Assembly: GCF_032444005.1 (NCBI RefSeq) | Contig: NC_091282.1 | Span: forward strand, 1,134,228,001-1,134,292,000 | Direction: 5' to 3' | From: Ranitomeya imitator | Lineage: Eukaryota | DNA length: 64,000 nucleotides | Shown: positions 5,651 through 64,000 of the stretch, one piece after another | Numbering within the stretch: the stretch's first letter is position 1 | How the letters are laid out: each line of letters begins with the position of its first letter | The notes under the pieces: model-generated | Database searches by the model: none | Told to the model about the DNA's origin: nothing | What the model saw: the letters and a program-made list of their open reading frames with translations, nothing else | Program-made: the position numbers and the translations under genes

Positions 5651-5770
5651 CTTTCATCTGTCTGATGTTTTTCTGTCCCGGAGTCCTTAATGGAATTTTA
5701 ATGTTTTTTCGAATAAAAAAATTTGGAAATTTTATCCCAGGAGCTGGAGGTGAATTTTTTCAAGCTTTAC
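5527..5770. repeat. 244-bp palindrome, 122-bp arms, no spacer
   Basis: Centred on GAG|CTC (5646-5651). Arms run gtaaagcttgaaaaaattcacc... to ...ggtgaattttttcaagctttac, with one mismatch seen (5579). Confidence 0.95.
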
Positions 5771-6364
5771 CATGTATTCACGTCTGACCAGGATGGCCCT
5801 CCGTGCACCGGTGTTTCATTAGGTGAGCTGGCTTTTTTTCTCTTTTTGTCCACAAAAAGCTAAATACATGTAGAAATTTCCTGTCCTGCATTATAGTTTT
5901 GTACAAAATGTAATTATTTTATTTTATTTTGCAGTTTAAAAACTAAAGGAAATTTGTTTTCCCCAAGGGGCAATTGGGATGGTTCCGGATATGAAATGTC
6001 TGTAATAGGGCCTTGATAAGTAGAATAGTTTGCTACCTGTTACATTACTTTTATTAAGGTAGATAGACTTTTGTTAATGTGATAATACTAATTATAGATA
6101 CTTACAGTGGGGCAAAAATGTATTTAGTCAGTCAGCAATAGTGCAAGTTCCACCACTTAAAAAGATGAGAGGCGTCTGTAATTTACATCATAGATAGACC
6201 TCAACTATGGGAGACAAACTGAGAAAAAAAAATCCAGAAAATCACATTGTCTGTTTTTTTAACATTTTATTTGCATATTATGGTGGAAAATAAGTATTTG
6301 GTCAGAACCAAAATTTCATCTCAATACTTTGTAATATATCCTTTGTTGGCAATGACAGAGGTCA

Positions 6365-23960: not shown

Positions 23961-24824
23961 GATACTTGAAAGTATCGGTATCGGATAGTATCGGCCGATA
24001 CCCGAAAAGTATCGGATATCGCCGATACCGATACCCGATACCAATACAAGTCAATGGGACACCAAGTATCGGAAGGTATCCTGATGGTTCCCAGGGTCTG
24101 AAGGAGAGGAAACTCTCCTTCAGGCCCTGGGATCCATATTAATGTGTAAAATAAAGAATTAAAATAAAAAATATTGATATAATTACCTCTCCGGAGGCCC
24201 CTGGACATCATCGCTGGTAACCGGCAGGCTTCTTTGTTTAAAATGAGCGCGTTTAGGACCTGAGAATGACGTCGCGGCTTCTGATTGGTCGCGTGCCGCT
24301 CATGTGACCGCCACGCGACCAATCAGAAGCCGCGACGTCATTCGCACGTCCTAAATTCCTAGAATGAGGAGTTTAGGGCCTGAGAATGATGTCACGGCTT
24401 CTGATTGGTCGCGTGCCGCTCATGTGACCGCCACGCGACCAATCAGAAGCCACGACGTCATTCTCAGGTCCTAAACTCCTCATTCTAGGAATTTAAGACC
24501 TGAGAATGACGTTGCGGCTTCTGATTGGTCGCGCGGCGGTCACATTAGCGGCACGCGACCAATCAGAAGCCGTGACGTCATGGAAGTACCTAAACGCGCT
24601 CATTTTAAGCAAAGAAGGCTGCCGGTTACCAGCGGTGATGTCCAGGGGCCTCCGGAGAGGTGAGTATATCAATATTTTTTATTTTAATTCTTTATTTTAC
24701 ACATTAATATGGATCCGATACCGATTCCCGATATCGCAAAAATATCGGAACTCGGTATCGGAATTCCGATACCGCAAGTATCGGCCGATACCCGATACTT
24801 GCGGTATCGGAATGCTCAACACTA
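23961..24824. mobile_element. hAT MITE (left TIR lost) with three internal CCAAT/CpG hairpins
   Basis: Same family as 27351-28114, with gatacc/ggtatc subterminal repeats and right TIR GCTCAACACTA. About 20 bp of the left end is missing. Confidence 0.85.
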
Positions 24825-26964
24825 ATGATGACCTAATGACCTTAATGTAATATAGTTTACATTTTTTATTATAATTTTTTTTCATTTTTTTTAATCATTA
24901 TTTCTGTTTCCTTAACTTATTTAAGATTTACCGTATAACTTTTTCTAAAATTTAAAAGAACATTTTAGGACAAATGTTATAAATCTTTTACTAATAACAA
25001 TTGTTTAATTTGGTAAAAGGATTCCAGTATTGTTTCTGATGCCAAGGATGGGCCATCAGCATGTTATGGTATGGTAGGGAGCTCCAACATGGACCACCAA
25101 AGATCAGAATTCGTTCATTTTCAGCTTTCTTATTATCCAAGAACTGTGTATGTGTTTGTTCCTGGTACTGTAGCTCCTGCACCCTTTCTTCCTTAGATCA
25201 CCATGATTACACATTAATGGTTTGTCCTAGGTAGAAGTCATCAATGTTTTCTTCACGAGAAGATTTCAGCAAATTCATAACATTAAGAGACTATTATTCT
25301 TTTGATAAAAACTTCAATATCATAGATTTTTTTTGTTTATTACAATAGGTAAAGTTTTACTGGGTAAAGTAGCTTAGGCTCTGTTCACATCTCATTCTAA
25401 GTCTATGGGGACATCTAGCACTGTTGGTGACTGTCGTGTGGCAGATCCGACACTTCAATATTATAATTTTTCTATTTCTAAGATACAAAATAAAATCTGT
25501 AATTAACAACACAGATGTGAATTCATCCTTAGAGGTTAGTGCTGCTACTGTACAATATAAGAGCTTCATCAATTAAACCCAAGCATTTGTGTGCTCTTTG
25601 TGTTTGCATTGGCTTCCTTCCACTCTACGAGAACATTATTATCATAACCTTAGAGATTTAATTAACCACATCTTAAATATAAGATGGCTTTATTTCTACC
25701 GATATATTTGGTTTGTTTAAATTTTCAGGTGTTATGTAAAAAAAATCTTCACAGGGTTGATTGCTTTGGTAAGCCCATTGTCAGTTTACCTATCATGCAG
25801 TTCTGAATTAATAGAGGGAGCTATCTCTCTTTGGAGGCCCTAGTTCTTATGTAACTTACGGTAATTTCCCCAAAGGTGGCACTGCAGAGAAAGGGAAAAC
25901 TTCCTATTAGGAATCTAGACATATTATGGCTTATTGCTTAGGTTCCTAACAATAGGACACCTGCGATTAGCCAATTCTTGAAGAACTGTTCTTACAAAGA
26001 ATGAAGTTTGAGTACTTAATCTTTATAAATCCAGCATTAAAACAACATGGAGCATAATGTCCTTTGCATGTATTCCCATCACTCGCTGCATCGGATTTTC
26101 TATATGTGTATGCTGCTCCACTCCTTAACTAATATATTTGTGTGTTTTTACTAAAGAATATTATTATTAGAGCTTCTCTCTTTATTCCTTATTATCATTG
26201 TTTCCCTGGCCAAATTTCAGAACATGCACCCTGCTGAAATAATTATTATTTTACAACACATTTTAAATGAATGTCACCGCTGGATACACGTGCTTGCTGG
26301 CCAAACACTTGAAAAGATTTCATTCAAAGACTTCCGATGGTAATCCTTCACATTGCTATAGGAATGTTATTCAACCTACACACTTACTCTGGATGCTGCT
26401 GGGAAAATGTTTGAATTAGGACTAATTAATGGAATGATTCTGTCTGAAACATAATATTTTCTTGGCCATGGATACTGCCATTTATTTTTTTGCATATCTT
26501 TGTCTCCTTCTCTGAGAATTCTGTATACGGGTGGACTATTACTTTAAATGATGCCTCCTGCAAATGATCACATTTCTAGGTCTGTACTAGTTCCAGTACC
26601 CAGAGCATACTTACCAACCAACACTTTAAAGTAAAAATTTGGAACATTTAAGCCCTGCCTCAAGGACTATCCTCGAAAGAAACCCCAAATGACCAGGAAT
26701 GCTTTAGATTTAATAATCATTTCTCTTTTACAGACTGGTTTTTGACACTATCCCAGTACCGTCCTTGAAATGCATTAGGCAAATAAGGGCCCCTACCATA
26801 CTTCTTTATACCTCTGATATCAATGCGTTTTTTTTCTAGAATCTGCTTGGAAGAAAAAGAGTAAATTGTGCATTACATGTGGTATTACACAGGGATCCTG
26901 ACTTGCTTTAAATGACAAATATATCTATCATAAGGCACTAAGGGCTCACTATGTTGCTGTATGT

Positions 26965-28757
26965 ATCCAGGATTCTGACACGGTCTCCCTTGCTGCAATT
27001 TCCCTTGGTGGCTTACAATTCTCCCATTCCACGAGACCCACAAACAGACCTGGTGGTGGAGTCGGCATACTCCTGTCCCCACAATGCACTTTCCAGGTCA
27101 TCCCCCCAGTTCCATCACTCTCATTTCCTTCTTTTGAGGTTCATAACATCAGGCTCGTCCGTCCCCTCTCCCTCAGAGTAGCGTTCATATATCGGCCCCC
27201 AGGCTCGCCCACCCACTTCCTTGACCACTTCTCAGCCTGGCTGCTGCACTTCATGTCCTCAGAACTCCCAACCCTTATCCTGGGAGACTTCAACATCCCC
27301 ATAAATAGTCCCACCTCCACATCTGCATCCCAGCTTCTATCACTAATCACTAGTGTTGAGCGATACCGTCCGATACTTGAAAGTATCGGTATCGGATAGT
27401 ATCGGCCGATACCCGAAAAATATCGGATATCGCCGATACCGATATCCGATACCAATACAAGTCAATGGGACACCAAGTATCGGAAGGTATTCTGATGGTT
27501 CACAGGGCCTGAAGGAGAGGAAACTCTCCTTCAGGCCCTGGGATCCATAGGGATGTGTAAAATAAAGAATTAAAATAAAAAATATTGATATATTCACCTC
27601 TCCGGCGGCCCCTGGACTTCACGCTGGTAACCGTCAGGCTTCTTTGTTTAAAATGAGCGCCTTTAGGACCTGCGAATGATGTCGCGGCTTCTGATTGGTC
27701 GCGTGCCACTCATGTGACCGCCACGCGACCAATCAGAAGCCGCGACGTCATTCGCAGGTCCTCAATTCCTAGAATTAGGAGTTTAGTGAATGAGAATGAC
27801 GTCGCGGCTTCTGATTGGTCGCGTGGCGGTCACATGAGCGGCACGCGACCAATCAGAAGCCGCGACGTAATTCGCAGGTCCTAAAGGCGCTCATTTTAAA
27901 CAAAGAAGCCTGCCGGTTACCAGCGTGAAGTCCAGGGGCCGCCGGAGAGGTGAATATATCAATATTTTTTATTTTAATTCTTTATTTTACACATCCCTAT
28001 GGAACCGATACCGATACCCGATACCACAAAAGTATCGGATCTCGGTATCGGAATTCCGATACCGCAAGTATCGGCCGATACCCGATACTTGCAGTATCGG
28101 AATGCTCAACACTACTAATCACTTCTCTCGGCCTCTCACAGCTCTCAATCTCTGAAACACACAAGGATGGTAACACCCTTGACATGGTCTTTGTCCGGCT
28201 CTGTTCAATCTACTACCTAGAAAACTCACCACTTCCCCTCTCTGACCACAACATTCTTTCCTTCACGCTCACAATTCCTCCCCCACCCCAGCACACTCCT
28301 ACCTACCACACATTCAGAAATCTACAAGCCATTAACTCTCATACACTTTCAGACTCCCTACACTCATCATTGTCCCCAATCTCCTCTTTTTCCTGTCCTG
28401 ATCTGGTGGTACATCACTACAATGACAGTCTCAGAAGCACCCTGGACCAAGTAGCTCCCCTCACCTTCAGAACCTCCAAGCACAGAGTAAAAGAGCCCTG
28501 GCTCACATTGCCAACTTGACTTCTCCAGTGATGCTCTAGAAGTGCTGAACGCTTATGGAGGAAAACTCACACCCCAGATTATTTCATCCACTACAAATTT
28601 ATGTTAACAACCTATAACTCTGCCCTTCACCTCGCCAAACAGACCTACTACACCACCCTGATATCCTCACTATCCAACAACCCCAAGAAACTTTTTGACA
28701 CCTTTCACTCACTCCTCAGGCCAAAAGCACTAGAACCTATCACAGACGTTTGTACTG
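26965..28757 (+). mobile_element. L2-clade LINE fragment (APE endonuclease and linker), split by a hAT MITE
   Basis: After removing the MITE, translation gives RPGGGVGILL, IYRPPG, LILGDFNI, THKDGNTLD, LSDHNIL and EPWLT. Confidence 0.85.
27351..28114. mobile_element. hAT MITE, 764 bp, perfect 8-bp TSD
   Basis: CTAATCAC|TAGTGTTGAGC...GCTCAACACTA|CTAATCAC. The interior is largely self-complementary. Confidence 0.93.
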
Positions 28758-38310: not shown

Positions 38311-38529
38311 GGCGGCAGGTTCTGGTGCCAAGGATGCTATGTGAGAAGGACCTTCCATGACATCATGGTCATGTGACCGCGATGTCGTCACAGGTCCTGC
38401 GCTCATACCCACCCTGGGACTGAAAGCTGCCGCGTGCACTGCACACAGGTGTCAGGACTTCAAGGGGCCTTCGGAAGGTGAGTATATGTTTATTTTTTAT
38501 TTTAAGTCTTTATTAACCACGCATATAGT

Positions 38530-39005
38530 GCCCACATGGCTATATACTACGTGGGCTGTGTTACATACTGCGTGGGCTGCGTTATATACTACATGGCTGC
38601 TATGTACTACATGGGCAGTGTTATATACTATGCGGGCAATATTATATACTGCGTGGGCTGCGTTATATACTACATGGCTGCTATATACTATGTGGGCAAT
38701 GTTATATACTGCGTGGGCTGCGTTATATACTACATGGGTGCTATATACTACGTGGGCAGTGTTATATACTGTGTGGGCTGCGTTATATACTACATGGCTG
38801 CTATATACCACGTGGGCAGTCTTGTATACTATATGGGCAGTGTTATATACTGTGTGGGCTGCGTTATATACTGCATGGCTGCTAAATACTTCGTGACCAG
38901 TGTTATGTACTATGTGGGCAATGTTATATACTGCGTGGGCTGTGTTATATACTGTTTGGGCTGTGTTATATACTGCGTGGCCACTGTTATATACTGCATT
39001 GGCTG
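38530..39005. repeat. Minisatellite of ~18-21-bp units (tatatactRcgtgggcWgYgt / tatatactacatggctgc)
   Basis: More than 20 variant units inside the Helitron-like element. Confidence 0.9.
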
Positions 39006-41159
39006 TATTAATGCATCTAGTGTTTATACTGTATATAGGCGTACTTATCCCTTTTTATGCTCTTTTCCATATTTTATATCAGTTTTTGCTTACGGATTTA
39101 GCACCTGTTTTTCATACGTGCTGTGAGTCTTTGTTTGTGTTATACAATATTTTTCACTGATACATTGTAAAACCATAATAAAGCATTCTGACTATAAGTG
39201 ATACATGTCTGCAGTCTATAATTCTGATATGAAGACTGCATTCACTATAAACTTGTAACATGATGATAATTACAGTCAAAATAATCTGCTCAAGTTTCTT
39301 CAGTTTCAAACAAATTATGGCCGCCTTAAATTTTTTGTTACGTTCAGGTAAAAAAAGTGCCCTATTTTTATGGACTGTCTTGAAATTTCAGGACAGTTGT
39401 CAACCCTGCTTCTGTCATTCCTGTCCATACCAGTTCCCTCAGTAAACGGTGCTTGTGTAGTGACTCAGTCCAGACTGGGTATGCCCTTTTAAGTTAACCC
39501 TGGACCATGAGTAGCTTCTGTATACTGCAACTCATTCCTAAGTTATCCTCTTACTCTTCCTCAGGTATGTGTTTCAGTGTCCTATTAAGTGCACTTTTCA
39601 TTTGTAGTGTTGCTTTATATATTAATCTCACAATGTGAAGTCTGACACAAGAATTGAGTAACCCCCGGAAGAAGCATGGAGGATCAGAAGTAGGGGGACA
39701 TGACCGGTGCAGGTTGCCAGTGACCAGGTGATTGGGGATTTTGGGAAAAGGCAGGGAGAACAGCAAGGAAGGAGGAGGGAGGTAGTAAAGGATTGACAAA
39801 GGGGAAATGACATAGGGGAAGTGACCTAGGCATGGGGAGGAGGGAGATCAAGGGGGATAAAAGGACGCAGGGAGGAACCATAACCCTCTTTCACTCCCAG
39901 GACGGCTGGACAACAAGCCCCACCCACCCATCCCAGAGGAGGAGAAGAACGACTGGGTCGCAGTGGCCGGATCAAATATTCAAATAATGATATGAAGGAT
40001 ACTTATGCAAACGTGTTTAATTTGGCAGTTACCTTTAAGCCCAGGGGAAGGGCAATCAAACGCCATGGTTCCCTGGAGATTTCCCCCACAGGAGTTTTTT
40101 CCTCTCCTGACTGGTGGCGGATGGCTCTTCGTGAGCCTGAGGTTCTGTTATAATGAACGGAATAATGATTTGAGCACTGGTGCTGGTGGGTCCTCGAAGC
40201 TGGCAAAAAAGTTCGGTATGGGGGAGTTCTTGCACTGCGGTGCCCCCCCTACAGTGGATGGTTACAGGTTGTTGGTGGTTTGGTGAGACTTGGGTGATAC
40301 TCGATGAGGCAAATCAGGGTCACATTATCATGGGACCCGGAGGGCCACCCGATGTTGGAGGTTGGGTGCGTGGTACCGATGGGTGGGTACCTGAAGATGG
40401 AAGTCAGGTACAGGTTTAATGGTGTGGAGGCAACCTCTTCCCTCAATTCATGGTGCTTCCGAGCCTGGAGGAAAACGCGGCTGGAAGTAAGGCTGGGAGG
40501 GAAGAGGCAATGCCGATGGTTTAATCACCAGACCAGGATTGGGTTAACTTTGAGGGCCCCACCAAGTGTCTTTAATTATTATTATTATTATTATTATTAA
40601 TAATAATAATAATAAATTGGCTGCTGTGGCCATTATGATCCAAAAGTACTGGTGTGGCGTGTTTATTCAAGGGAAAAAGGGGGAAGGTCACGGAGAGTCA
40701 ACCTTGCGAAGGTCAAGAGTTATACTATTGGTCAATGACCCTGTTACCAAGGTTCAATAGGAGGAGCTACCTCCACTCTCTGTGGAGACAAGACAGAGAT
40801 CTGGAAAGATGTGACCCAGAGCAGATCTTTGGTGAGGGTTCTCCTAACCCCTCCAGACTCCAAGTCTGGAGGTTCATCCTTCTCTTCATCTCAAGACTTA
40901 TAGCCAGGCCTAATACCTTGTGTCGTCCCCTGACTTCTACAGCCAAGACAGCTAAAGGCTTTTAACCCTCTTAACCCTGAATCCCCGCTGTCCGGTTTAA
41001 GGCGTGTTTCTCCAGCATTAGGTTACACTAAATGAGTACAGAAGAACCTATTGCTCTGCTTGTTGAGGAAATCAAGGGTCCTCCACCTCACTGCAAATTA
41101 TCCGTTATTTACTTTAAGTATATTTCTGCACGTACCGTGACCAGCTGAGAAAAGGAATA

Positions 41160-42160: not shown

Positions 42161-45100
42161 TGTTGTGAATTCTGTTGTCGAACTCCCTCCTGTGGTCATG
42201 AATGGTACTTCGTCGAGTTCTGTCTATGGGCTCCCTCTGGTGGCTTTGAGTGAAGCTGCTTCTTCTGAGGTTCCTTTCACAGGTGACGTGGGTTATCCTT
42301 TGGTTGGCTGCTCTATTTAACTCCTCTCAGATCGTTACTCCATGCCAGCTGTCAATGTTTTTGCATTCGTTCAGTTTGCTCCTGGATCTCTCTGGTGACC
42401 TGCCTTCTCCTGCAGAAGCTAAGTTCCTTATAGTCTTATTTTGTTCTCTGTTTTCTTGTCCAGCTGGTTTTCATGATTTTGTCTTGCTAGCTGGTAGCTC
42501 TGGGATGCAGAGTGGCCCCTCCGCACCGTGAGTCGGTGCGGAGGTCTTTTCTGCACACTCTGCGTGGTCTTTTGTAGGTTTTTGTGCTGATCGCAAAGTT
42601 ACCTTTCCTATCCTCTGTCTATTTAGTAAGTCTGGCCTCCCTTTGCTGAAACCTGTTTCATCTCTGCGTTTGTGACTTTCATCTTACTCACAGTCAATAT
42701 ATGTGGGGGGCTTCCTTTACCTTTGGGGAATTTCTCTGAGGCAAGGTAGGCTTTATTTTCGATCTCTAGGGCTAGATAGTTCTTAGGCTGTGACGAGGCG
42801 CCTAGGTCTGGTCAGGAGCACTCCACGGCTATTTTTAGTGTGTGATAGGATTAGGGCTTGCGGTCAGCAGAGCTCCCACATCCCAGAGCTCGTCCTGTAT
42901 GAGGTTTAATTATCAGGTCTTTCCGGGTGCTCCTAACCACCAGGTCATAACAGTACCACGCCTTTGGCCAAGAATAAGCCTCAGTACTGGACTCAATTGA
43001 CCATGTGCATGGCTCCTGCACATCAGGAGGATATTCGCTTTTTGGTGTTGCATAATCTGCATGATGTGGTCGTTTTGGGGTTGCCATAGCTACAGGTCCA
43101 TAATCCAGTGTTGGATTGGAAATCTATGTCTGTGTCCAGCTGGGGTTGTCAGGGGGTACATGGTGATGTTCCATTGCTGTCAATTTCGCCATCCACTCCT
43201 TCTGAAGTCCCTGAGTTTTTATCAGATTATCGGGATGTATTTGAAGAGCCCAAATCCGGTGTCCTACCTCCTCATAGGGATTGCGACTGTGCTATTAATT
43301 TGATTCCTGGTAGTAAGTTTCCTAAGGGCCGTCTGTTTAATTTATCTGTGCCAGAGCACGCCGCTATGCGGAGTTATATAAAGGAATCCTTGGAGAAGGG
43401 TCATATTCGTCCGTCGTCGTCACCATTGGGAGCAGGGTTCTTTTTTGTGGCCAAGAAGGATGGTTCTTTGAGACCTTGTATTGATTACCGCCTTCTTAAT
43501 AAGATCACAGTCAAATTTCAGTATCCTTTGCCGCTGCTGTCTGATTTATTTGCTCGGATTAAGGGGGCTAGTTGGTTCACCAAGATAGATCTTCGTGGTG
43601 CGTATAATCTTGTGCGAATTAAACAGGGTGATGAATGGAAAACGGCATTTAATACGCCCGAGGGCCATTTTGAGTACCTGGTTATGCCATTCGGGCTTTC
43701 TAATGCTCCATCTGTGTTTCAGTCTTTTATGCATGGCATCTTCCGAGAGTACCTGGATAGATTCATGATTGTATATTTGGATGACATTTTGGTCTTTTCG
43801 GATGATTGGGAGTCTCATGTGAAGCAGGTCAGAATGGTGTTCCAGGTCCTTCGTGCGAATTCCTTGTTTGTGAAGGGGTCAAAGTGTCTCTTTGGAGTTC
43901 AGAAGGTTTCATTTTTGGGTTTCATTTTTTCCCCTTCTACTATCGAGATGGACCCTGTTAAAGTTCAGGCCATTTACGATTGGATTCAGCCGACATCTGT
44001 GAAGAGCTTACAGAAGTTCCTGGGCTTTGCTAATTTTTATCGTCGCTTCATCGCTAATTTTTCCAGTATTGCTAAACCGTTGACTGATTTGACCAAGAAA
44101 GGTGCTGATGTGGTCAATTGGCCCTCTGCGGCTGTAGAGGCTTTTCAGGAGTTGAAGCGTCGTTTTGCTTCTGCCCCTGTGTTGTGCCAGCCAGATGTTT
44201 CGCTCCCTTTTCAGGTTGAGGTTGATGCTTCTGAAATTGGAGCAGGGGCTGTTTTGTCGCAAAGAAGTTCTGATGGCTCGGTGATGAAACCCTGTGCCTT
44301 CTTTTCTAGAAAATTCTCGCCTGCTGAGCGCAATTATGATGTGGGCAATCGGGAGTTGTTGGCCATGAAGTGGGCATTCGAGGAGTGGTGACATTGGCTT
44401 GAAGGAGCTAAACATCGTGTGGTAGTCTTGACGGATCACAAGAATTTGACTTATCTCGAGTCTGCCAAACGGTTGAATCCTAGACAGGCTCGATGGTCGC
44501 TCTTTTTCTCCCATTTTGATTTTGTGGTTTCATACCTTCCGGCATCTAAGAATGTGAAGGCTGACGCCCAGTCAAGGAGTTTTGTGCCAGACTCTCCGGG
44601 TGTTCCGGAGCCGGCGGGTATTCTTAAAGAAGGGGTAATTTTGTCTGCCATTTCCCCTGATTTGCGGCGTGTGCTGCAAAAGTTTCAGGCTGATAGACCT
44701 GACCGTTGTCCTACGGAGAAACTGTTTGTCTCTGATAGATGGACTAGTAGAGTTATCTCTGAGATTCATTGTTCAGTGTTGGCTGGTCATCCTGGAATCT
44801 TTGGTACCAGAGATTTGGTGGCTAGATCCTTTTGGTGGCCTTCTTTGTCACGGGATGTGCGTTCTTTTGTGCAGTCCTGTGGGACCTGTGCTCGGGCTAA
44901 ACCCTGCTGTTCTCGTGTCAGTGGGTTGCTTTTGCCCTTGCCGATCCCGAAGAGGCCCTGGACGCATATTTCCATGGATTTTATTTCTGATCTCCCTGTT
45001 TCTCAAAAGATGTCGGTCATTTGGGTGGTTTGTGATCGCTTCTCTAAGATGGTCCATTTGGTACTCTTGTCTAAATTGCCTTCCTCCTCTGATTTGGTGC

Positions 45101-46843
45101 CATTATTTTTCCAGCATGTGGTTAGTTTGCATGGCATTCCAGAGAACATCGTCTCGGACAGAGGTTCCCAGTTTGTTTCGAGGTTTTGGCGGTCCTTTTG
45201 CGCTAAGATGGGCATTGATTTGTCTTTTTCTTCGGCTTTCCATCCTCAGACTAATGGCCAAACCAAACGAACTAATCAGACTTGGAGACATATCTGAGAT
45301 GCTTTGTTTCTGCTGATCAGGATGATTGGGTGTCCTTCTTGCCTTTGGCTGAGTTCGCCCTTAATAATCGGGCCAGCTCGGCTACTTTAGTTTCTCCTTT
45401 TTTCTGTAATTCTGGTTTCCATCCTCGTTTCTCTTCAGGGCAGGTTGAGCCATCGGACTGTCCTGGTGTGGATGCGGTGGTGGACAGGTTGCAGCAGATT
45501 TGGACTCATGTGGTGGACAATTTGACATTGTCCCAGGAGAAGGCTCAACGTTTCGCTAACCGCCGGAGTTGTGTTGGTCCCCGACTTCGTGTTGGGGATT
45601 TCGTTTGGTTGTCATCTCGTCACGTTCCTATGAAGGTTTCCTCTCCTAAGTTTAAGCCTCGTTTCATTGGGCCATACAAGATTTCTGAAGTTCTTAATCC
45701 TGTGTCATTTCGTTTGGACCCTCCAGCTTCTTTTGCCATCCATAATGTGTTCCATAGGTCGTTGTTGCGGATATACGTGGCGCCTATGGTTCCCTCCGTT
45801 GATCCTCCTGCCCTGGTGTTGGTCGAGGGGGAGTTGGAGTATGTGGTGGAGAAGATTTTGGATTCTCGTGTTTCGAGACGGAAACTCCAGTACCTGGTCA
45901 AGTGGAAGGGTTATGGTCAGGAAGATAATTCCTGGGTTTTTGCCTCTGATGTTCATGCTGCCGATCTGGTTCGTGCCTTTCATTTGGCTCATTCTGATCG
46001 GCCTGGGGACTCTGGTGAGGGTTCGGTGACCCCTCCTCAAGGGGGGGTACTGTTGTGAATTCTGTTGTCGAACTCCCTCCTGTGGTCGTGAATGGTACTT
46101 CGGTGAGTTCTGTCTATGGGCTCCCTCTGGTGGCTTTGAGTGAAGCTGCTTCTTCTGAGGTTCCTTTCACAGGTGACGTGGGTTATCCTTTGGTTGGCTG
46201 CTCTATTTAACTCCTCTCAGATCGTTACTCCATTCCAGCTGTCAATGTTTTTTGCATTCGTTCAGTTCGCTCCTGGATCTCTCTGGTGACCTGCCTTCTC
46301 CTGCAGAAGCTAAGTTCCTTATAGTCTTATTTTGTTCTCTGTTTTCTTGTCCAGCTGGTTTTCATGATTTTGTCTTGCTAGCTGGTAGCTCTGGGATGCA
46401 GAGTGGCCCCTCCGCACCGTGAGTCGGTGCGGAGGTCTTTTTTGCACACTCTGCGTGGTCTTTTGTAGGTTTTTGTGCTGATCGCAAAGTTACCTTTCCT
46501 ATCCTCTGTCTATTTAGTAAGTCTGGCCTCCCTTTGCTGAAACCTGTTTCATCTCTGCGTTTGTGACTTTCATCTTACTCACAGTCAATATATGTGGGGG
46601 GCTTCCTTTACCTTTGGGGAATTTCTCTGAGGCAAGGTAGGCTTTATTTTCGATCTCTAGGGCTAGATAGTTCTTAGGCTGTGACGAGGCGCCTAGGTCT
46701 GGTCAGGAGCGCTCCACGGCTATTTTTAGTGTGTGATAGGATTAGGGCTTGCGGTCAGCAGAGCTCCCACATCCCAGAGCTCGTCCTGTATGAGGTTTAA
46801 TTATCAGGTCTTTCCGGGTGCTCCTAACCACCAGTTCATAACA
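42161..46843 (+). mobile_element. Chromovirus, LTR subtype B, internally deleted (no PBS, gag or most of protease)
   Basis: LTRs at 42161-42952 and 46051-46843, PPT 46039-46047, flanks ACCTCC / GCCTCC. The internal region jumps from GTAC directly to late-protease sequence. Confidence 0.95.
42957..46058 (+). pseudogene. pol remnant: RT (YLDD), RNase H, integrase, chromodomain
   Basis: ORFs 43108-44391, 44419-45297 and 45282-46058, with one stop (CGA>TGA at 44389) and one frameshift near 45285. Confidence 0.92.
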
Positions 46844-49800
46844 GCCTCCCATCTTCATTCCAAGACGTCTTCTTCTGATCTTCAGCCACGGCTCCAGCGC
46901 AGGCGTACTTTGTCTGCCCTGTTGAGGGCAGAACAAAGTACTGCAGTGCGCAGGCGCCGGAAAGGTCAGAGAGGCCCGGCGCCTGCGCACTGCAGTACTT
47001 TGCTCTGCCCTCAACAGGGCAGACAAAGTACGCCTGCGCCGGAGCCGTGGCTGAAGATCAGAAGAGGATGTCTTGGAATGAAGATGGGAGGTGCCGCAGC
47101 GGACCAGAGACACCCATTTGACCGTACCAGCAGCGGGACCGCCCCTGGGTGAGTATAATATAACGTCTTTTTCTCCTCTTTCAGGTAACATCGGGGGCTT
47201 ATCTACAGCATTACAGAATGCTGTAGATAAGCCCCTGATGCCGGTGGGCTTACCTCACCCGCGATTTTCGGGGTGACAGGTTCCCTTTAATTGTGGAGAA
47301 ATACTTGAGCATTCTGCATCTCCTGGCCTTTGACTTTGGCTGTACTCTTAAGACTGTTACCTTGCTCACTGACACACCTCGCATTGTTTATATATGACCC
47401 TACTTGCAATGAGCAGGTCCTTATGACAGTATATGTGGTCCTTCTACCCTCCCCAAACTCTCTACTGCCAAACTCTCTATTTTAACCACCTGTCCTGTCA
47501 TGACCTCTCACCCTACTATTGTACTGGTGCAATAATGCCACAATTCTTACCAGCAAGTTAGCATTGGGCTCCTTGTGGATGTGCACTGACCCATGGCAGT
47601 TCCTCCCTCTCAAAGCTGACAACCAAGAATTGGTGGGACTGACTTATTTGGTGTTTGCATCCACCTGAACTGGAGATATTAGTTGGATGCTCTGAGAAAT
47701 ATAAAAATAATGCTGGGGTGTCAAAACTAGAGTAAAGCAGCGATATTCAGACAAAGGAGCTACACATGTATTATATAGTTCAATTGAAAAATTACAACAA
47801 TTTGCCTGTTTGGAATCAATTATGGCATTTGAGTGGTTGAGAAGCAGGGATTGTAGATATCTATGCTTCCTCAGAAGCACACTCCAAGATGTTCTTTCCC
47901 CTGTGCAGTCTTACTGACGTTACTCTAGTCTACACCATAAAACCTTTAAACAAAGGTATAGTTACCTTGCAATGCACTACAGGGTTAAAGTATAGAAAAT
48001 ACTGCTTGCTTCATTGATTTAACACGGATAAGCTCAAAATTGTGCAAATTCAGCCAAAGCAAAAAACGCTGGGCTTTCTTGGACTAATTGTTTGAGCTCT
48101 TCACGCGATTTACAAGTCATGATTTATGTGATTGAGCTATGTTTTTGGGAGGGGTTAGCTCAGCAACTATAATCATCATAGGATTTTGATATTTTTGATA
48201 TTTTTTCAGGAATATTCCATGGACAAATAATATTTGGTATGTGGCACTAGTCAGCAAATTCATTAAAATTCAAACTCTGCATACACCATTGTTAAAGCAT
48301 TATTCTGAATTCATTAACCTTCTCGGTGTCCTGATTTGTGATGTGGCGATGCATTATATCTTAGACATGAATGTTTATTTAGTCATTTACACTACTCACT
48401 GTATAAGTTGCTGCTTTGTAATGCGGTGCTAAGGGCACGGGTGCTGCTGGCCATGCGCTTTCTGGAAGGACATATCTAATGCACTGTGGTGCACATTATT
48501 TAGTGCTGAACAGGCTTCGCCTCTGTTGTTGTGTACAAGCTGGTGTGACCTGCAGCTAAATAAAGGAAGCACAAGATGTTCGGTACCATTAGTTATTCTT
48601 TGTGGCATGCCTTTGTCACTGATAAAGGATGCAGGAGATGTTCAGAACCATTAGCTATTCTTCCTAGCATGCGTTTGTCACCAGGATAGAAAATGTGCCA
48701 ACTGTGGAGTGTGAGTTCAATAACAATTTTCTTGCTTTTTATTTTTGACGGAGCAAACATTATATTAATCCTATTCTGCAATTATACAAAGCATATATAT
48801 ATTTTTCCTGATAGAGAAAAAATACAATTCCAGGTCTGACAGGGTTTTTGTGGATAAATGTATTGATTTGAAAACTTACGGTAATATTTCATATCACGCC
48901 ATGATAAATGAAGCTCTTGGGCACATTCTATTGTGTTCTGATGCCATTGAAAACCAGAGGGCATTATATAATGAGAAACTATTGATGCGTCCTGTTGAGA
49001 AACCCTGACAAAGTGTCTAAAAAAATGTTTCTGCACCACAACATGTGGATTTGCCTATTATAATTTTGATATGTAAAATAAGAAGAAAAAGGGAGGGAAT
49101 CGGCTCACCGAACCAGCAACGAATGTTAGGCGCAACAGGATTCCATTTTCTGTGTAGTGTATGGTATCTCGCCACCCAAAGAGAATATGAAAGACAATCC
49201 AGTACATAAATGGTAAAATCCAGCACCATGAGAGTTAAGAGTAAACGTCAGCACATTTCTGTATGGGTGTGTAGGCAATTGACCCTCAATACCAATGATA
49301 TCTTTTCTTGTATAAATTAGAGAACTCTAGTGTAGAAGCCACATGCAGATTAGACTGAAGTCATTGTGGGTGTGACAGTGCACATCAGAGAGCCAGTCCA
49401 GGGAGTTGACACCCCCCCATTGCTCATCCAGCTAATTTGCATATGACTTCTAGAATAGATATCTTAGCACTGGCACATCAGATTTCTATAAAAAAAAAGG
49501 TATGACTTACTTTGGGTGACAAGTTTCTATACATCCATACCAATAATTCCATATCTAAACAGGTGCTCAAGGGTTCCCTGAGCAAATTTGTATTAGTCCA
49601 TATAAAAAAATATGGAAATGTGCTGGAAGTTAGAAAAAAATGTTGGGTTTCATGTGTAACCAGTAACCACTTTTAGCTTTGGCCACAAGTGGCTACATCT
49701 GAAACGCATACTTTTTTTTTTAAGACTTCTAACACATTTCTAAATGTGTTTTTTATTTAGAAAAAAATAGAATTTGAGAGTTTTAACTCTTTTAACCCTA

Positions 49801-52062: not shown

Positions 52063-53159
52063 CCATATACACTCGAGTATAAGCCGACCCGAGTATAAGC
52101 CGAGGTGCCTAATTTTGCCACAAAAAACTTGGCATACTTATTGACTCGTGTATAACACTAGGGTGGAAAATGCAGCAGCTACTGGTAAATTTCAAAAATA
52201 AAAATAGATACCAATAAAAGTAAAATTAATTAAGACATCAGTAGGTTAAATGTTTTTGAATATCCATATTGAATCAAGAACCCCATAAGATGATCCATAC
52301 AAAATAAGCCCCATATAATGCTCCATAAAGTTCATGATGGGCCCCATAAGATGCTCCATACAAAAATATGCCCCATATAATCCTGCATAAAGGTTAATGA
52401 TGGCCCCATAAGATGCTCCATAGAAAAATATGCCCCATATAATGCTGCACAAAGGTTAATGATGGCCCCATAAGATGCTCCATATTAAAATATGCCCCAC
52501 ATAATGCTCCATAAAGGTTAATGATGGCTCCATAAAGTGCTCCATATTAAAATATGCCCCATATAACGCTGCACAAAGGATAATGATGGCCCCATCTTAT
52601 GATGCTCCATAGAAAATGTGCCCCATATCATGCTCATCGTATAAGTGCAGTTTATTATGATATGATTACTGTATATCTGCTGCTGCAATACAAAAGAAAA
52701 AAATTGCATACTCACCTCTCGTTGCTGCCCGCTGCTCCTCAGCGTAGCTGGGTCTCTGCAGTGACTGTTCAGGCAGAGGGCACACACTAACCACATCATC
52801 GCACCCTCTGATCTGAACGTCACAGCCAGACCAGGAAGACACAGCGTGGCGGTGGAACGGGGACATATGAATATCGCAAGTGTCAGTGTCCTGAGCAAGT
52901 GGAGGCACAGGCACCTGGCCCCCATAGCGCGCTGGTGTCCCCGCCTGCTCAGGACATCGGCACTTGCCCCGGTGCCAACGCTGACCCCTGGCCCTGTCAG
53001 CAGCCACCGGAACACTTACTGAGGCTGCAGGGAAGCGCGGACATGTTCTGGAGATGCCGGGGACCTTCTCACTGGGACCGTGATTCATGTATAAGCCGAG
53101 GGGGGTCTTTTTCAGCCAAAAAAGGGGCTGAAAAACTCAGCTTATACACAAGTATATGG
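52063..53159. mobile_element. pogo-like MITE with internal ~63-bp minisatellite
   Basis: TA|CCATATACACTCGAGTATAAG...CTTATACACAAGTATATGG. Tandem ccccataagatgctccata...ttaatgatgg units at ~52290-52640. Confidence 0.82.
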
Positions 53160-54389
53160 AAGGGGATGAGGAAACCAGCCCTTTAAGAATTGGTTATGTT
53201 ACATGTGTTGGACAAATTTATTATGCTACTGCTACATTATTATGTGTATTACCATTCCCCAGATGCGTGTTTGTTGGTACTGCTACACTACTTTGTGTAT
53301 TACCATGTCATACATATTGCTAATGTTCTTTTTCCCTTCTTTGTGTCTGTTGAATAGAGAAACTGTAGTGATGGAGTTTGGCCACTAGATGGGGGCATCA
53401 TGTAGTTAGTTACTAGTTAATGTAGGAGGGGTTGGCAGCAGGATAGAGAGGGGGAACTTCCTCATTTAGATCGTAGGAGCCTGGGTGCCCAGCAGTCCAT
53501 ACAGGCTTAATTGCCCTGGGACACTAGCTTCCACCGTGCAATGTTGTGCAAGGAAGAGCCCAGCTATTGATGGCATCGTTAGAGAACAGCGAGGTGTTAT
53601 GATAGGCAATTCAGTACCACAATGGACATAGCGGTCAGAGCACATACAGTGATCTGACAATAACCCAAAATCATAGAACGAGCTCTGAGACGTGGGAACT
53701 CTGCAGACCGCAATCCCTAATCCTCTCCAAACAACACTAGAGGCAGCCGTGGATTGCGCCTAACTCTGCCTATGCAACTCGGCACAGCCTGAGAAACTAA
53801 CTAGCCTGAAGATAGAAAATAAGCCTACCTTGCCTCAGAGAAATACCCCAAAGGAAAAGGCAGCCCCCCACATATAATGACTGTGAGTAAGATGAAAAGA
53901 CAAACGTAGGGATGAAATAGATTCAGCAAAGTGAGGCCCGACTTTCTTAACAGAGCGAGGATAGGAAAGATAACTTTGCGGTCTACACAAAACCCTAAAG
54001 GAAACCACGCAAAGGGGGCAAAAAGACCCTCCGCACCGAACTAACGGCACGGAGGTACACCCTTTGCGTCCCAGAGCTTCCAGCAAAACAATTAGACAAG
54101 CTGGACAGAAAAAACAGCAAACAAATAGCAAAGAAGAACTTAGCTATGCAGAGCAGCAGGCCACAGGAATGATCCAGGGAAAAACAAGTCCAACACTGGA
54201 ACATTGACAGGAAGCTAGGATCAAAGCATTAGGTGGAGTTAAGTAGAGCAGTACCTAACGACCTCACCACATCACCTGAGGTAGGAAACTCAGAAGCCGC
54301 AATACCACTTACCTCCACCAACAGAAGCTCACAGAGAGAATCAGCCAAAGTACCACTTGTGACCACAGGAGGGAGCTCTGCCACAGAAT

Positions 54390-57300
54390 TCACAACATTA
54401 CCCCCCCTTGAGGAGGGGTCACCGAACCCTCACCAGAGCCCCCAGGCCGACCAGGATGAGCCACATGAAAGGCACAAACAAGATCGGGAGCATGGACATC
54501 AGAGGCAAAGACCCAGGAATTATCTTCCTGAGCATAACCCTTCCACTTAACCAGATACTGGAGTTTCCGTCTTGAAACACGAGAATCCAAAATCTTCTCC
54601 ACAATATACTCCAACTCCCCCTCCACCAAAACCGGGGCAGGAGGGTCAACAGATGGAACCATAGGTGCCACGTATCTCCGCAACAATGACCTATGGAATA
54701 CATTATGTATGGAAAAGGAATCTGGAAGGGTCAGACGAAAAGACACAGGATTAAGAACCTCAGAAATCCTATACGGACCAATGAAACGAGGTTTAAACTT
54801 AGGAGAGGAAACCTTCATAGGAATATGACGAGAAGATAACCAAACCAGATCCCCAACACGAAGTCGGGGACCCACACAGCGTCTGCGATTAGCAAAACGT
54901 TGAGCCCTCTCCTAGGACAAGGTCAAATTGTCCACTACATGAGTCCAAATCTGCTGCAACCTGTCCACCACAGTATCCACACCAGGACAGTCCGAAGACT
55001 CAACCTGTCCTGAAGAGAAACGAGGATGGAACCCAGAGTTGCAGAAAAATGGCGAAACCAAGGTAGCCAAGCTGGCCCGGTTATTAAGGGCGAACTCAGC
55101 CAAAGGCAAAAGGACACCCAGTCATCCTGATCAGCAGAAACAAAACATCTCAGATATGTTTCCAAGGTCTGATTGGTTCGTTCGGTCTGGCCATTAGTCT
55201 GAGGATGGAAAGCCGAGGAAAAAGACAAGTCAATGCCCATCCTACCACGAAAGGCTCGCCAAATCCTCAAAACAAACTGGGAACCTCTGTCAGAAAGATA
55301 TTCTCTGGAATACCATCTAAACGAACCACATGCTGGAAGAACAATGGCACCAAATCAGAGGAGGAAGGCAATTTAGACAAGGGTACCAGATGGACCATCT
55401 TAGAAAAGCGATCACAGACCACCCAAATGACTGACATCTTTTGAGAAACGGGAAGATCTGAAATAAAATCCATAGAGATATGTGTCCAAGGTCTCTTCGG
55501 GACCGGCAAGGGCAAAAGCAACCCACTGGCACGAGAACAGCAGGGCTTAGCCCGAGCACAAATCCCACAGGACTGCACAAAAGTACGCACATCCCGTGAC
55601 AGAGATGGCCACCAAAAGGATCTAGCCACTAACTCTCTGGTACCAAAGATTCCAGGATGACCAGCCAACACCAAACAATGAACCTCAGAGATAACTTTAT
55701 TCGTCCACCTATCAGGGACAAACAGTTTCTCCGCTGGACAACGATCAGGTTTATTAGCCTGAAATTTTTGCAGCACCCGCCGCAAATCAGGGGAGATGGC
55801 AGACACAATTACTCCCTCCTTGAGGATACCCGCCGGCTCGGACAAACCCCGGAGAGTCGGGCACAAAACTCCTAGACAGAGCATCCGCCTTCACATTTTT
55901 AGAGCCCGGAAGGTACGAAATCACAAAGTCAAAACGGGCAAAAAACAGCGACCAACGAGCCTGTCTAGGATTCAACCGCTTGGCAGACTCGAGATAAGTC
56001 AAGTTCTTATGATCAGTCAATACCACCACGCGATGCTTAGCTCCTTCAAGCCAATGACGCCACTCCTCGAATGCCCACTTCATGGCCAGCAACTCTCGGT
56101 TGCCCACATCATAATTACGCTCAGCAGGCGAAAACTTCCTGGAAAAAAAAGCGCATGGTTTCATCACTGAGCAATCAGAACCTCTCTGCGACAAAACAGC
56201 CCCTGCTCCAATCTCAGAAGCATCAACCTCGACCTGGAACGGAAGAGAAACATCTGGTTGACACAACACAGGGGCAGAAGAAAAACGACGCTTCAACTCC
56301 TGAAAGGCTTCCACAGCAGCAGAAGACCAATTGACCACATCAGCACCCTTCTTGGTCAAATTGGTCAATGGGTTAGCAATACTAGAAAAATTGCAGATGA
56401 AGCGACGATAAAAATTAGCAAAGCCCAGGAACTTTTGCAGACTTTTCAGAGATGTCGGCTGAGTCCAATCATGGATGGCTTGGACCTTAACAGGATCCAT
56501 CTCGATAGTAGAAGGGGAAAAGATGAACCCCAAAAATGAAACCTTCTGCACACCAAAGAGACACTTTGATCCCTTCACAAACAAAGAATTAGCACGCAGG
56601 ACCTGAAAAACCATTCTGACCTGCTTCACATGAGACTCCCAATCATCCGAGAAGATCAAAATGTCATCCAAGTACACAATCAGGAATTTATCCAGGTACT
56701 CTCGGAAGATGTCATGCATAAAGGACTGAAACACTGATGGAGCATTGGCAAGTCCGAATGGCGTCACTAGATACTCAAAATGACCCTCGGGCGTATTAAA
56801 TGCAGTTTTCCATTCATCGCCTTGCTTAATTCGCACCAGATTATACGCACCACGAAGATCTATCTTGGTGAACCAACTAGCCCCCTTAATCCGAGCAAAC
56901 AGATCAGATAACAATGGCAAGGGGTACTGAAATTTAACCGTGATCTTATTAAGAAGGCGGTAATCTATACAAGGTCTCAGCGAACCATCCTTCTTGGCTA
57001 CAAAAAAGAACCCTGCTCCTAATGGCGATGATGACGGGTGAATATGCCCCTTTTCCAGGGATTCCTTCACATAACTGCGCATAGCGGTGTGCTCAGGCAC
57101 GGATAAATTAAACAGTCGACCTTTTGGGAATTTACTACCAGGAATCAAATTGATAGCACAATCACAATCCTTATGCGGGGGTAGGGTATCGGACTTGGGC
57201 TCATCAAATACATCCCGGTAATCAGACAAGAACTCTGGTACCTCAGAAGGGGTGGATGACGAAATTGACAGAAATGGAACATCACCATGTACCCCCTGAC

Positions 57301-58456
57301 AACCCCAGCTGGACACCGACATGGATTTCCAATCTAATACTGGATTATGGACTTGTAGCCATGGCAACCCCAACACGACCACATCATGCAGATTATGCAA
57401 CACCAGAAAGCGAATATCCTCCTGATGTGCAGGAGCCATGCACATAGTCAGCTGGGTCCAGTACTAAGGCTTATTCTTGGCCAAAGGTGTAGCATCAATT
57501 CCTCTCAATGGAATAGGACACTGCAAGGGCTCCAAGAAAAACCCACAACGCTTAGCAAACTCCAAGTCCATCAAATTCAGGGCAGCGCCTGAATCCACAA
57601 ATGCCATGACAGAATACGATGACAAAGAGCAGATCAAGGTAACGGACAGAAGAAATTTTGACTGTACCGTACCAATGGTGGCAGACCTAGCGAACCGCTT
57701 AGAGCGCTTAGGACAGTCAGAGATGGCATGAGTGGAATCACCACAGTAGAAACACAGACCATTCAGACGTCTGTGTTCTTGCCGTTCAACTCTGGTCAAA
57801 GTCCTATCGCACTGCATAGGCTTAGGTTTAATCTCAGGTAATACCGCCAAATGGTGCACAGATTTACGCTCACGCAAGCGTCGACCGATCTGAATGGCCA
57901 AAGACATAGACTCATTCAGACCAGCAGGCATAGGAAATCCCACCATGACATCCTTAAGGGCTTCAGAGAGACCCTTTCTGAAAATCGCTGCAAGCGCAGC
58001 TTCATTCCATTGAGTGAGTACGGACCACTTTCTAAATTTCTGACAATATACCTCTATCTCATCCTGACCCTGACACAAAGCCAGCAAATTTTTCTATGCC
58101 TGATCCACTGAATTAGGCTCATCGTACAGCAATCCGAGCGCCAGGAAAAACGCATCAATATTACTTAATGCAGGATCTCCTGGCGCAAGGGAAAATGCCC
58201 AGTCTTGAGAGTCGCCACGCAAAAAAGAAATAATAATTCTCACTTGTTGAGCTGGGTCACCAGGGGAGTGAGGTTTCAAGGCCAGAAACAGTTTGCAATT
58301 ATTTTTGAAATTCACAAACTTGACTCTATCACCATAAAACAAATCAGGAATAGGAATTCTTGGTTCAAACATAGACTTCTGAACCACCAAATCTTGAATC
58401 TTTTGTACATGTATAACGAGATTATCCATTGAAGAGCACAGACCCTGAATGTCCAT
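54390..58456 (-). pseudogene. gag-pol polyprotein (Gag, zinc knuckle, protease, RT, RNase H, integrase, chromodomain), two nonsense codons and frameshifts in integrase
   Basis: CFYCGDSTHAISDC, FVDSGA, YLDD, DASEIG, H...GHPG...C..C, WTHISMDF and VKWKGY. ORFs 58094-58519, 57464-58087 and 55787-57445 are all in one frame. Confidence 0.93.
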
Positions 58457-58579: not shown

Positions 58580-58589
58580 GGCTTCCTGT
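58580..58589 (-). promoter_or_regulatory. Non-tRNA primer-binding site ACAGGAAGCC (candidate self-priming site)
   Basis: Starts 2 nt after the 5' LTR and lacks the TGG of tRNA PBSs. It is the exact complement of GGCTTCCTGT in the same LTR (59213-59204). Confidence 0.8.
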
Positions 58590-60229
58590 ACTGTTATGAT
58601 AGGCAATTCAGTACCACAATGGACATAGCGGTCAGAGCACATACAGTGATCTGACAATAACCCAAAATCATAGAACGAGCTCCGAGACGTGGGAACTCTG
58701 CAGACCGCAATCCCTAATCCTCTCCAAACAACACTAGAGGCAGCCGTGGATTGCGCCTAACTCTGCCTATGCAACTCGGCACAGCCTGAGAAACTAACTA
58801 GCCTGAAGATAGAAAATAAGCCTACCTTGCCTCAGAGAAATACCCCAAAGGAAAAGGCAGCCCCCCACATATAATGACTGTGAGTAAGATGAAAAGACAA
58901 ACGTAGGGATGAAATAGATTCAGCAAAGTGAGGCCCGACTTTCTTAACAGAGCGAGGATAGGAAAGATAACTTTGCGGTCTACACAAAACCCTAAAGGAA
59001 ACCACGCAAAGGGGGCAAAAAGACCCTCCGTACCGAACTAACGACACGGAGGTACACCCTTTGCGTCCCAGAGCTTCCAGCAAAATAATTAGACAAGCTG
59101 GACAGAAAAAACAGCAAACAAATAGCAAAGAAGAACTTAGCTATGCAGAGCAGCAGGCCACAGGAATGATCCAGGGAAAAACAAGTCCAACACTGGAACA
59201 TTGACAGGAAGCCAGGATCAAAGCATTAGGTGGAGTTAAGTAGAGCAGTACCTAACGACCTCACCACATCACCTGAGGTAGGAAACTCAGAAGCCGCAAT
59301 ACCACTTTCCTCCACCAACAGAAGCTCACAGAGAGAATCAGCCGAAGTACCACTTGTGACCACAGGAGGGAGCTCTGCCACAGAATTCACAACAGCGAGG
59401 CAAGTAATACAGTGGGAAAGCACAAAGGCAGAGACAGTATGGGAGGCACAGTTGGCTTCATCATGTGGCAGCTTATAGCCTGGGTGGATGTCCTCAGCAT
59501 TGGGGAGAAATGGTTGCAAAGTAAATCACTTGACATAGCGGACACAGAGCTGGAGTGTGCTGAGTCAAAGTGTAGTACTGGAGGACAGATCACTAACTAA
59601 ATGTCAGCTAGCTGCGGAGACAGTAACTCCTTTGTCCAGTACAAAACAGTTCAAGAAGGGACTGACCGCTGTGGAGCTGGATTGGCAGGACTTAGAAGAG
59701 ACCTGTGGTACGGTCCGTCTCGAGCACGTACAGAGTGAGGGGAAGGAGATGAAAGGGAAATAAGCTAATCAATCTAATGGCGTTCTCACTGATGATGCTG
59801 TAAGAATTGTAAATGTGCTGAAGAAAAGTAAAGTTATTTGTTTGAAAATTCAACCAGACTGTGTCTCCATTGTTATATGACCCACTGATACAGGCTCACA
59901 AGAAGAAAGGAGTGATCCTGATGGTGAGGAAGAGAGAGATGCAGGTACATGTGAAGAAGGACAGAGTGTGCATGTTTTGAGAGGCCAGGGCACCGAGGTA
60001 CCAGAGAGTTTAGCCACGACGACAGCCCTGGCCCAGCTCTCTACATATATATGGTAAATAATATTATTTACCACATGTGTACTTTACATCTGCATAATTT
60101 TTGAAACATTATTTTTTTATTAGGGAGATAGAAGGCTTAAAAGTTGTTCAATATTTAGAAAATTATTTTTTTTAGGGACCAAATCACATTTGAAGTGACT
60201 TGGAGGGCCTATGTGACAGAAAATACCCA

Positions 60230-63413: not shown

Positions 63414-64000
63414 CCGTATATACTCGAGTATAAGCCGACCCGAGTATAAGCCGACCCCCCTAATTTTGCCACAAAAAACTGGGAAAACTTATTGACTCGA
63501 GTATAAGCCTAGGGTAGAAAATGCAGCATTTACCGGTGAATTTCAAAAATAAAAATAGATGCTCCATACCGTTCATTATTGCCCCATAGATGCTCCATAT
63601 ACAACTGTGCTATATAGAATGCTCTGCACCGTTGATTATGGCCCCATAGATGCTCCTTATAATGCTGTGCCATATATGCTCTGCACCTTTGATTATGGCC
63701 CCATAGGTGCTCCTTATAATGCTGTGCCCCATTTATGCTCTGCACCTTTATGGCCCCATAGGTGCTCCTTATAATGCTGTGCCCCATATATGCTGTGCAC
63801 CTTTATGGCCCCATAGGTGCTCCTTATAATGCTGTGCCCCTTATATGCTCTGCACCTTTATGGCCCCATAGGTGCTCCTTATAATGCTGTGCCCCATATA
63901 TGCTCTGCACCTTTATGGCCCCATAGATGCTCCTTATAATGCTGTGCCCCATTTATGCTCTGCACCTTTATGGCCCCATAGGTGCTCCTTATAATGCTGT
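63414..64000. mobile_element. pogo-like MITE (runs off window) with 55-bp minisatellite
   Basis: TA|CCGTATATACTCGAGTATAAG, same family as 52063. Unit gtgctccttataatgctgtgccccatatatgctctgcacctttatggccccatag has a 55-bp period (63761, 63816...). Confidence 0.88.

Follow-up and report, generated by a model that had tools for sequence, protein, structure and literature searches.

How is reverse transcription primed in an LTR retrotransposon whose 5′ LTR is not followed by TGG? The question is raised by an element lying on the minus strand, at positions 59394–53595, of the 64,000-nucleotide stretch of Ranitomeya imitator DNA analysed here (the window); its features are all read on that strand. Bounding the element are two 803-nt LTRs of the form TG…CA, at 58592–59394 (5′ LTR) and 53595–54397 (3′ LTR), with 7 differences between them in the LTR alignment, and outside these are the left (59395–59400) and right (53589–53594) copies of a 6-bp target-site duplication (TSD), recognized by flank comparison. 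Domain search and copy alignment place gag (CCHC motif at 57754), a protease motif (57595), reverse transcriptase (RT) and RNase H in one frame (55787–58456), interrupted in the window copy by stops at 58096 and 57466. Pfam matched RT and RNase H and, in the integrase region (54390–55890, in several frames in the window copy), a zinc finger, SH3_Tf2-1 and a chromodomain; PF00385 (chromodomain, E = 1.8e-13) and PF24626 (E = 2e-18) both fall within 54390–54911, the integrase C terminus. A polypurine tract (PPT) ending in GT, then 2 nt (AA in this copy), leads to the 3′ LTR (54398–54409). The TG…CA LTRs, the order gag–PR–RT–RH–IN, the PPT, the TSD and the C-terminal chromodomain are those of a Ty3/Gypsy chromovirus. 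Owing to its stops and integrase frame changes, the window copy cannot serve as an active template as it stands. Among 13 aligned copies, gag (with the CCHC motif) and pol share a frame in 9, without any common stop, and a slippery −1 frameshift site considered at the gag/pol border found no support in these copies. Neither AATAAA nor ATTAAA occurs on the element strand of the LTR at 58592–59394.

In a 39-row RT–RNase H tree, whose rows were hand-picked and comprise neither of the named references sushi-ichi and Amn-san, the element falls into a clade of fungi and vertebrates (support 100/98) and within it into a vertebrate clade (97/83), apart from the seed-plant rows, the grouping expected of the Tf1/sushi group (GyDB Fungi/Vertebrates cluster). 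Fish and amphibian elements surround it in the tree, two Xenopus tropicalis proteins among them; none of these bears the name Amn-san or sushi-ichi. Ranitomeya imitator supplies the closest named proteins, many of them at 93–99% identity, which marks the host as a dendrobatid frog.

The initial annotation had read the 5′ LTR as ending TAACA at 58592, followed by GT (58591–58590) and then by ACAGGAAGCC (58589–58580) with no TGG, and had located the exact complement, GGCTTCCTGT, inside the LTR at 59213–59204, 29 nt past a TATA-like TACTTAA (59242–59236); all of these letters are as described, the 29 nt counting from the first T of the box. From the match it had proposed that the element, in the manner of Tf1, primes with its own capped 5′ 10-mer, in a duplex bounded at 10 nt by the next LTR base, C 59203. 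That base indeed cannot pair, and self-priming is strongly supported below by covariation of LTR and PBS across subfamilies; the length of 10 nt is not, since the duplex common to the family has 9 bp. The predicted self-primer is accordingly the 9-mer GCTTCCTGT (59204–59212), whose first base lies 30 nt past the first T of the TATA-like box, and ACAGGAAGC (58581–58589) is the primer-binding site (PBS), separated from the LTR end by the GT spacer (58590–58591). The box (59236–59242) has T at its third place in most of the 106 copies compared. Immediately 3′ of the primer is a near-invariant CAATGTT (59197–59203, 97–100% conserved). The 3′ LTR of the window element also contains the 9-mer, with A in place of G at the preceding position (54216), the first base of the 10-mer.

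Taken singly, this match is only suggestive, because a 10-nt complement arises by chance in the LTR in 0.56% of 20,000 dinucleotide shuffles, or in 1.5% with the spacer free at 0–5 nt. For a 9-nt complement the corresponding values are 1.9% and 5.2%.

Related copies lie elsewhere in the window. On the plus strand, a 5′-truncated subtype-A copy (2524–4080) ends in an LTR at 3278–4080, which is preceded by a PPT and is thus a 3′ LTR; LTR comparison finds the same 10-mer in it at 3460–3469, the initial annotation having expected a transcription start at 3460. This copy is flanked by a pair of related RT frames, probably of LINE type (258–2124 and 6356–8608), neither of which matches RNase H or integrase. 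A subtype-B copy (42161–46843), about 75% alike, has its 5′ LTR on the plus strand at 42161–42952 with the primer variant GCCAGCTGT at 42344–42352; a deletion starting 4 nt past this LTR has removed the PBS and gag, and the first primer base of its 3′ LTR is changed. Because its PBS is deleted, this copy is unusable for covariation. A subtype-B LTR at 15907–16699 stands alone, and its flanking duplication is badly preserved. The window further contains long inverted repeats resembling MITEs or foldback elements (24212–24832 and 27372–28122; 46845–47221; 5521–5776) and minisatellites (38458–39020, 52301–52610 and 63638–64000).

Other copies in the genome settle the point. A pattern with five PBS bases left open found 20,660 LTR–PBS junctions genome-wide, and one with five primer bases open found 129,620 promoters; control patterns gave 0 and 2 matches, respectively. 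Of the first 30 junctions by position, 28 have the promoter. In 25 of these, a perfect complement to the copy's own 9-nt PBS stands at a single fixed distance from the TATA-like box, L061, L065 and L066 among them probably representing one duplicated locus; the other three of the 28 have one mismatch each. When the PBSs were permuted among the 28 copies, matches averaged 11.3 and reached at most 20 in 20,000 trials, against 25 observed. Eleven matched primer/PBS types are found, in which pairs 3–7, five of the nine, vary on both sides, and the GC and GT ends are constant.

A blind scan of 106 aligned leaders ranked primer:PBS first in covariation excess among 499 helices of at least 5 pairs that are retained at 85% of weight or more. 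Left out of this set were 30 loci that had been chosen because PBS base 8 was mutated, a single duplicate, and any copy lacking a full promoter or junction. Pair counts in these leaders are 81 CG and 23 TA at 59210, 65 TA and 38 AT at 59209, 83 CG and 18 GC at 59208, and 60 TA and 44 AT at 59206. On an LTR tree built without the primer and PBS columns, each of these four scored pairs requires 3–5 changes; as the copies are related, the independent events are few per pair, though repeated, and do not number hundreds.

A prediction made in advance also held. For 20 LTRs with primer variants absent from the PBS sample, the expected PBSs were written down before the sequences were fetched; 14 proved to be 5′ LTRs, and each of these has CA, then GT and then a perfect complement; four previously unsampled primer/PBS types account for 13 of the 14. 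The other six LTRs have no junction. The GT spacer is thus present in 14 of 14 copies chosen without it, and is conserved at 99–100% in the 106 leaders, part of which were chosen by a pattern containing GT.

Rare variants count against this pattern. Twenty LTRs with a rare change at primer base 7 yielded 12 with a readable PBS, of which 4 match and 8 do not, and several uncompensated variants carry the change in both LTRs, as judged by the positions of the matches. Twelve mismatched copies were fetched whole, and 8 of them have a usable 3′ LTR: in three the primer change is confined to the 5′ LTR, in three the PBS is odd, and in one both LTRs differ from the PBS at base 9; the rest of the twelve yielded no matching 3′ LTR. 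These copies fit post-insertion decay or first-generation errors, the primer copy in an LTR presumably deriving from the 3′ repeat of the parent. Copying of the primer into the PBS, a form of self-compensation, was considered and found unsupported: besides the 8 of 12 rare base-7 variants, all 25 PBS base-8 mutants with a promoter are uncompensated, and A at PBS base 10 is not enriched for T before the primer (12/26 versus 16/28).

The duplex common to the family has 9 bp, 59212–59204 with 58589–58581, beginning at G 59212, and a tenth pair is optional. The position preceding the primer (59213) is G in the window copy and T, G or C elsewhere, and may be read either as that optional pair or as position −1; among 90 matched junctions, a set enriched for G by the way in which copies were chosen, 46 have G here, 42 have T and 2 have C, and PBS base 10 (58580), C in all 11 types, is C in 87. 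Within the B and C lineages this base is T in 31,489 LTRs and non-T in 2,069, and primer base 7 differs in only 159; being far more variable than base 7, the position lies outside the constrained helix. At most, then, G-type copies like that in the window have a tenth G–C pair and thereby the 10-mer. Were transcription to begin at G 59212, the first T of the box would lie at −30 and T-type copies would have a pyrimidine–purine step; both are usual for RNA polymerase II (Pol II).

Substitutions at this position are skewed. The first 100 non-T variants listed comprise 70 G, 29 C and 1 A, whereas the first 100 of 1,108 variants listed for a control T four bases upstream comprise no G, 95 C and 5 A. 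Many of the variant matches are paired about 5 kb apart, that is, they occupy both LTRs, and on a tree of 71 B/C-type LTRs, blurred by LTR recombination, G occurs in six separate clades. Either of two processes would account for the excess of G: copying of the cap, which requires priming on uncut RNA, or selection for a tenth G–C pair with the start one base earlier.

According to the second of these, transcription of G-type copies starts at 59213 and the primer has 10 nt, the extra pair being selected. This is possible, although we consider it clearly the less probable course: G 59213 can pair with the invariant C 58580, the window copy has a TG step at 59214–59213, and G has arisen at least six times among the 71 LTRs, with the bias of 70 G to 1 A noted above, but T-type copies are equally common and keep an unpartnered C at base 10 (40 of the 90 matched junctions), the 3′ LTR of the window element has A at this position, and cap copying would also yield an excess of G.

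The first process depends on a primer cut from one packaged RNA often priming on the other, uncut RNA. Such priming in trans, to which we give a low probability, would let RT reach the capped 5′ end and so explain the excess of G; L070, L082 and L092 (the last chosen for its rarity) are mismatched and have a PBS of another type, which also speaks for it. Against it, the helix folds readily in cis, selection for the tenth pair explains G equally well, and recombination explains the mixed copies. In its full form, the proposal is that the 9-mer's m7G cap takes the part of a tenth base facing the invariant C of PBS base 10, and that copying of the cap by RT is frequent enough to produce recurrent T-to-G changes, in both LTRs, at the position preceding the primer; from an m7G cap, MMLV RT is able to template C (PMC6885630). 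We regard the proposal as a tentative lead that is unlikely to hold in full. If it did, genome copies would map the transcription start and reveal trans priming on uncut partner RNA, which the literature cited here, in its available portions, does not show for Tf1, and, with the 11 natural compensatory types, a family of about 130,000 LTRs would provide genome-scale evolutionary proof of self-priming in a vertebrate.

Covariation demonstrates pairing, not priming. The 9-bp helix could be real and serve packaging, dimerization, export or translation control, with priming achieved otherwise, and other helices in R–U5 do covary as well, so that the leader is structured beyond what priming needs. 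We nevertheless judge this improbable: the helix sits exactly at the position of a PBS, 2 nt from the LTR end; its other arm keeps a fixed distance from the TATA-like box even in L061, L065 and L066, where a 4-nt duplication has been inserted just after the primer in the 5′ LTR (it is missing from the 3′ LTR of L061); its 3′ end mirrors the PPT junction; and Tf1, of the same group, has this geometry. The weakest alternative, that the 3′ end, half or fragment of a host tRNA primes and the LTR match is incidental, gains from one abundant PBS type with TGG 4 nt past the LTR, which matches the tRNA-Cys 3′ end over 6 nt, and from an alignment that covered tRNA-Lys and tRNA-Cys (36 distinct sequences, from an Rfam search and 20 genomic stretches) and so leaves room for other tRNA fragments, but it is highly improbable, because the window copy, which has no TGG adjoining the LTR, and the other three sampled PBS types match these tRNA ends over 1 nt at most, and because a host RNA, being fixed, could neither follow 11 PBS variants nor make the LTR vary in step with them. 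The genome has a tandem array of tRNA-Lys(TTT) at G000:C4, about 660.78–660.84 Mb, with a spacing of about 1,008 nt, and tRNA-Cys clusters on C1 and C2.

Self-priming is thus the reading that we prefer: judged from sequence, the LTR 9-mer, an exact complement of the PBS, very probably primes reverse transcription as the capped 5′ end of the element's own RNA. Pol II would start at or adjoining G 59212, 30 nt past the TATA-like box. The first 9 nt pair with the PBS about 620 nt downstream, as the covariation shows, covarying R–U5 helices compacting the intervening loop. By analogy with Tf1, the RNase H of the element would cut after U9, before the conserved CAAUGUU (that is, before 59203), and RT would extend the 3′ end of the primer, copying GT and then U5 and R. 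In the sequence, the predicted primer of the plus strand likewise finishes in GU, and ACTGTT opens either strand; the cDNA would thereby gain a putative 2-nt extension at each end, which integrase would trim after CA, leaving the 6-bp duplications that are observed.

The ends of the element bear on these predictions. Among 14 whole copies with a true 3′ LTR, 13 have a G-rich tract ending in GT and then AC before that LTR; the window copy, which is not one of these 14, has AA. This mirrored AC supports the suggestion in the initial annotation that the 2-nt spacer equals the dinucleotide trimmed by integrase. The shared GU terminus of the two predicted primers, and the ACTGTT with which either DNA strand would open, also support cleavage behind base 9 and cDNA prolonged by 2 nt at both ends. 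A TSD of 6 bp is found in 10 of the 14 whole copies and in all 7 solo LTRs that show one; the solo LTRs come from 18 flank–flank candidates, and the 11 without a TSD are mostly 5′ or 3′ LTRs whose junction is altered.

Thirteen natural leaders were folded from the presumed start site, a choice that favours the primer:PBS helix; the minimum-free-energy structure contains the full helix in 11, while of the other two leaders one forms 8 of the 9 pairs and one forms none. The pairs of the helix have a mean probability of 0.43–0.99 over the 13 leaders and of 0.67 in the window copy. Changes on both sides are also found in nested R–U5 helices spanning 58678–59075 (59075–59066:58687–58678, 59066–59057:59013–59004, 59052–59042:59035–59025, 58984–58973:58710–58699 and 58775–58771:58754–58750). 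A U5–leader stem spotted by eye in subtype A is missing from the family-wide helices. The three-duplex 'pretzel' of Tf1, described together with 5-bp TSDs in bioRxiv 10.1101/2022.12.06.519325, was not clearly recovered in the 106 leaders, its side duplexes being invariant or one-sided: a 4-bp TGTT:AACA, which CAATGTT could form with the LTR-terminal AACA, is paired in 105–106 of the 106 but is invariant and so uninformative on pairing, and a 6-bp candidate side helix (59194–59189:58576–58571) is paired in 88–106 of the 106, with mostly one-sided changes.

Two arrangements of the copies were noted in passing. L022 and L023, about 5.0 kb apart on G000:C1, include an LTR that both follows a PPT and precedes a PBS, as in tandem elements sharing one LTR, which may have arisen as in integrase-independent Tf1 insertion and are explained equally by unequal recombination. 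On G000:C1 at about 197,000–271,000 are some 15 same-strand LTRs of one primer type, spaced by 3–11 kb, probably an array or segmental duplication.

The mechanism itself is already known. Tf1 primes by self-priming with 11 nt released by an RNase H cut (PMC7175516), the same type has been implicated from fungi to vertebrates (PMC4600332), and self-priming is stated to be a common feature of the Tf1/sushi group (PMC6317226; bioRxiv 10.1101/2022.12.06.519325), the statements for this group citing Butler et al. 2001, in agreement with the background given in the initial annotation. It is proven in fission yeast, and in the cited literature, as far as its available portions extend, it is proposed for vertebrates from inspection of sequence. 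To this the frog family adds natural compensatory mutants at five base pairs, a primer length of 9 nt and base-exact predictions of start and cut, by which the old proposal becomes directly testable through 5′-end sequencing. What makes the family valuable is this run of natural compensatory types, which is unusually strong evidence, along with the predictions to the base, the TSD of 6 bp and the lead on the cap. Titles and abstract openings, a search with most subscription journals outside its coverage, returned no covariation or mapped start for an amphibian chromovirus. Amn-san, described with the V-clade in PMC4131045 and PMC2774666, is the most abundant LTR type of frogs, mostly with a chromodomain, and the available portions of these two papers make no mention of a PBS or of self-priming. 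Another poison frog has 1.0 Gb of Gypsy elements (PMC6278860); additional context is given in PMC3601003, PMC2864245 and PMC7472051. With 129,620 promoter matches, a tRNA-independent element forms a visible share of a 6-Gb frog genome. Such a family would be expected, from the review literature available to us, to escape PBS-directed silencing through fragments of tRNA 3′ ends, and it would probably be missed or misjudged by annotation tools for which a tRNA PBS is obligatory.

Among known systems, the best solved relative of the RT is that of Ty3 (4ol8 and 7q5b, E about 1e-84), a tRNA-primed member of the Metaviridae that, unlike the frog element, uses a tRNA-iMet primer with a bipartite PBS, and whose PBS is not inherited from the primer (PMC5371799). 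Self-priming has likewise been predicted from PBS–LTR complementarity in plant Tcn1-clade chromoviruses and TAR-clade copia elements, which belong to other hosts and clades; the seed-plant matches lie outside the clade of the frog element. Fish and amphibian chromodomain elements, among which it is nested, are 56–68% identical to it in RT–RNase H. Non-yeast members of the Tf1/sushi group reportedly use mostly a −1 frameshift, whereas the frog family has gag and pol in one frame in the majority of aligned copies noted above. This single frame is shared with Tf1 and Tf2 of Schizosaccharomyces pombe, as are the chromodomain integrase, the lack of a tRNA PBS and the complementarity between 5′ LTR and PBS (found also in Tj1, Tosmo1–3 and Tcry1), and the window copy shows the following features of this group: no TGG PBS, in a comparison with tRNA-Lys and tRNA-Cys, and a PBS complementary to the 5′ LTR segment at the predicted RNA start. 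The differences are of detail. The Tf1 primer has 11 nt against 9 (10 at most) in the frog family; in Tf1 the cDNA end gives the PBS motif directly, a PBS copy being retained in about half of the cDNA (PMC11042837), whereas 2 nt separate LTR and PBS in the frog; the Tosmo LTR is about 395 nt long and the frog LTR about 800 nt, hence the loop of about 620 nt; TSDs are 5 bp in Tosmo and, more broadly, in fission-yeast and lycophyte relatives, against 6 bp here; the fission-yeast elements have no gag CCHC motif, which the frog family has; and the pretzel of Tf1 is not clearly present in it. With these differences, the frog family in all probability works like Tf1.
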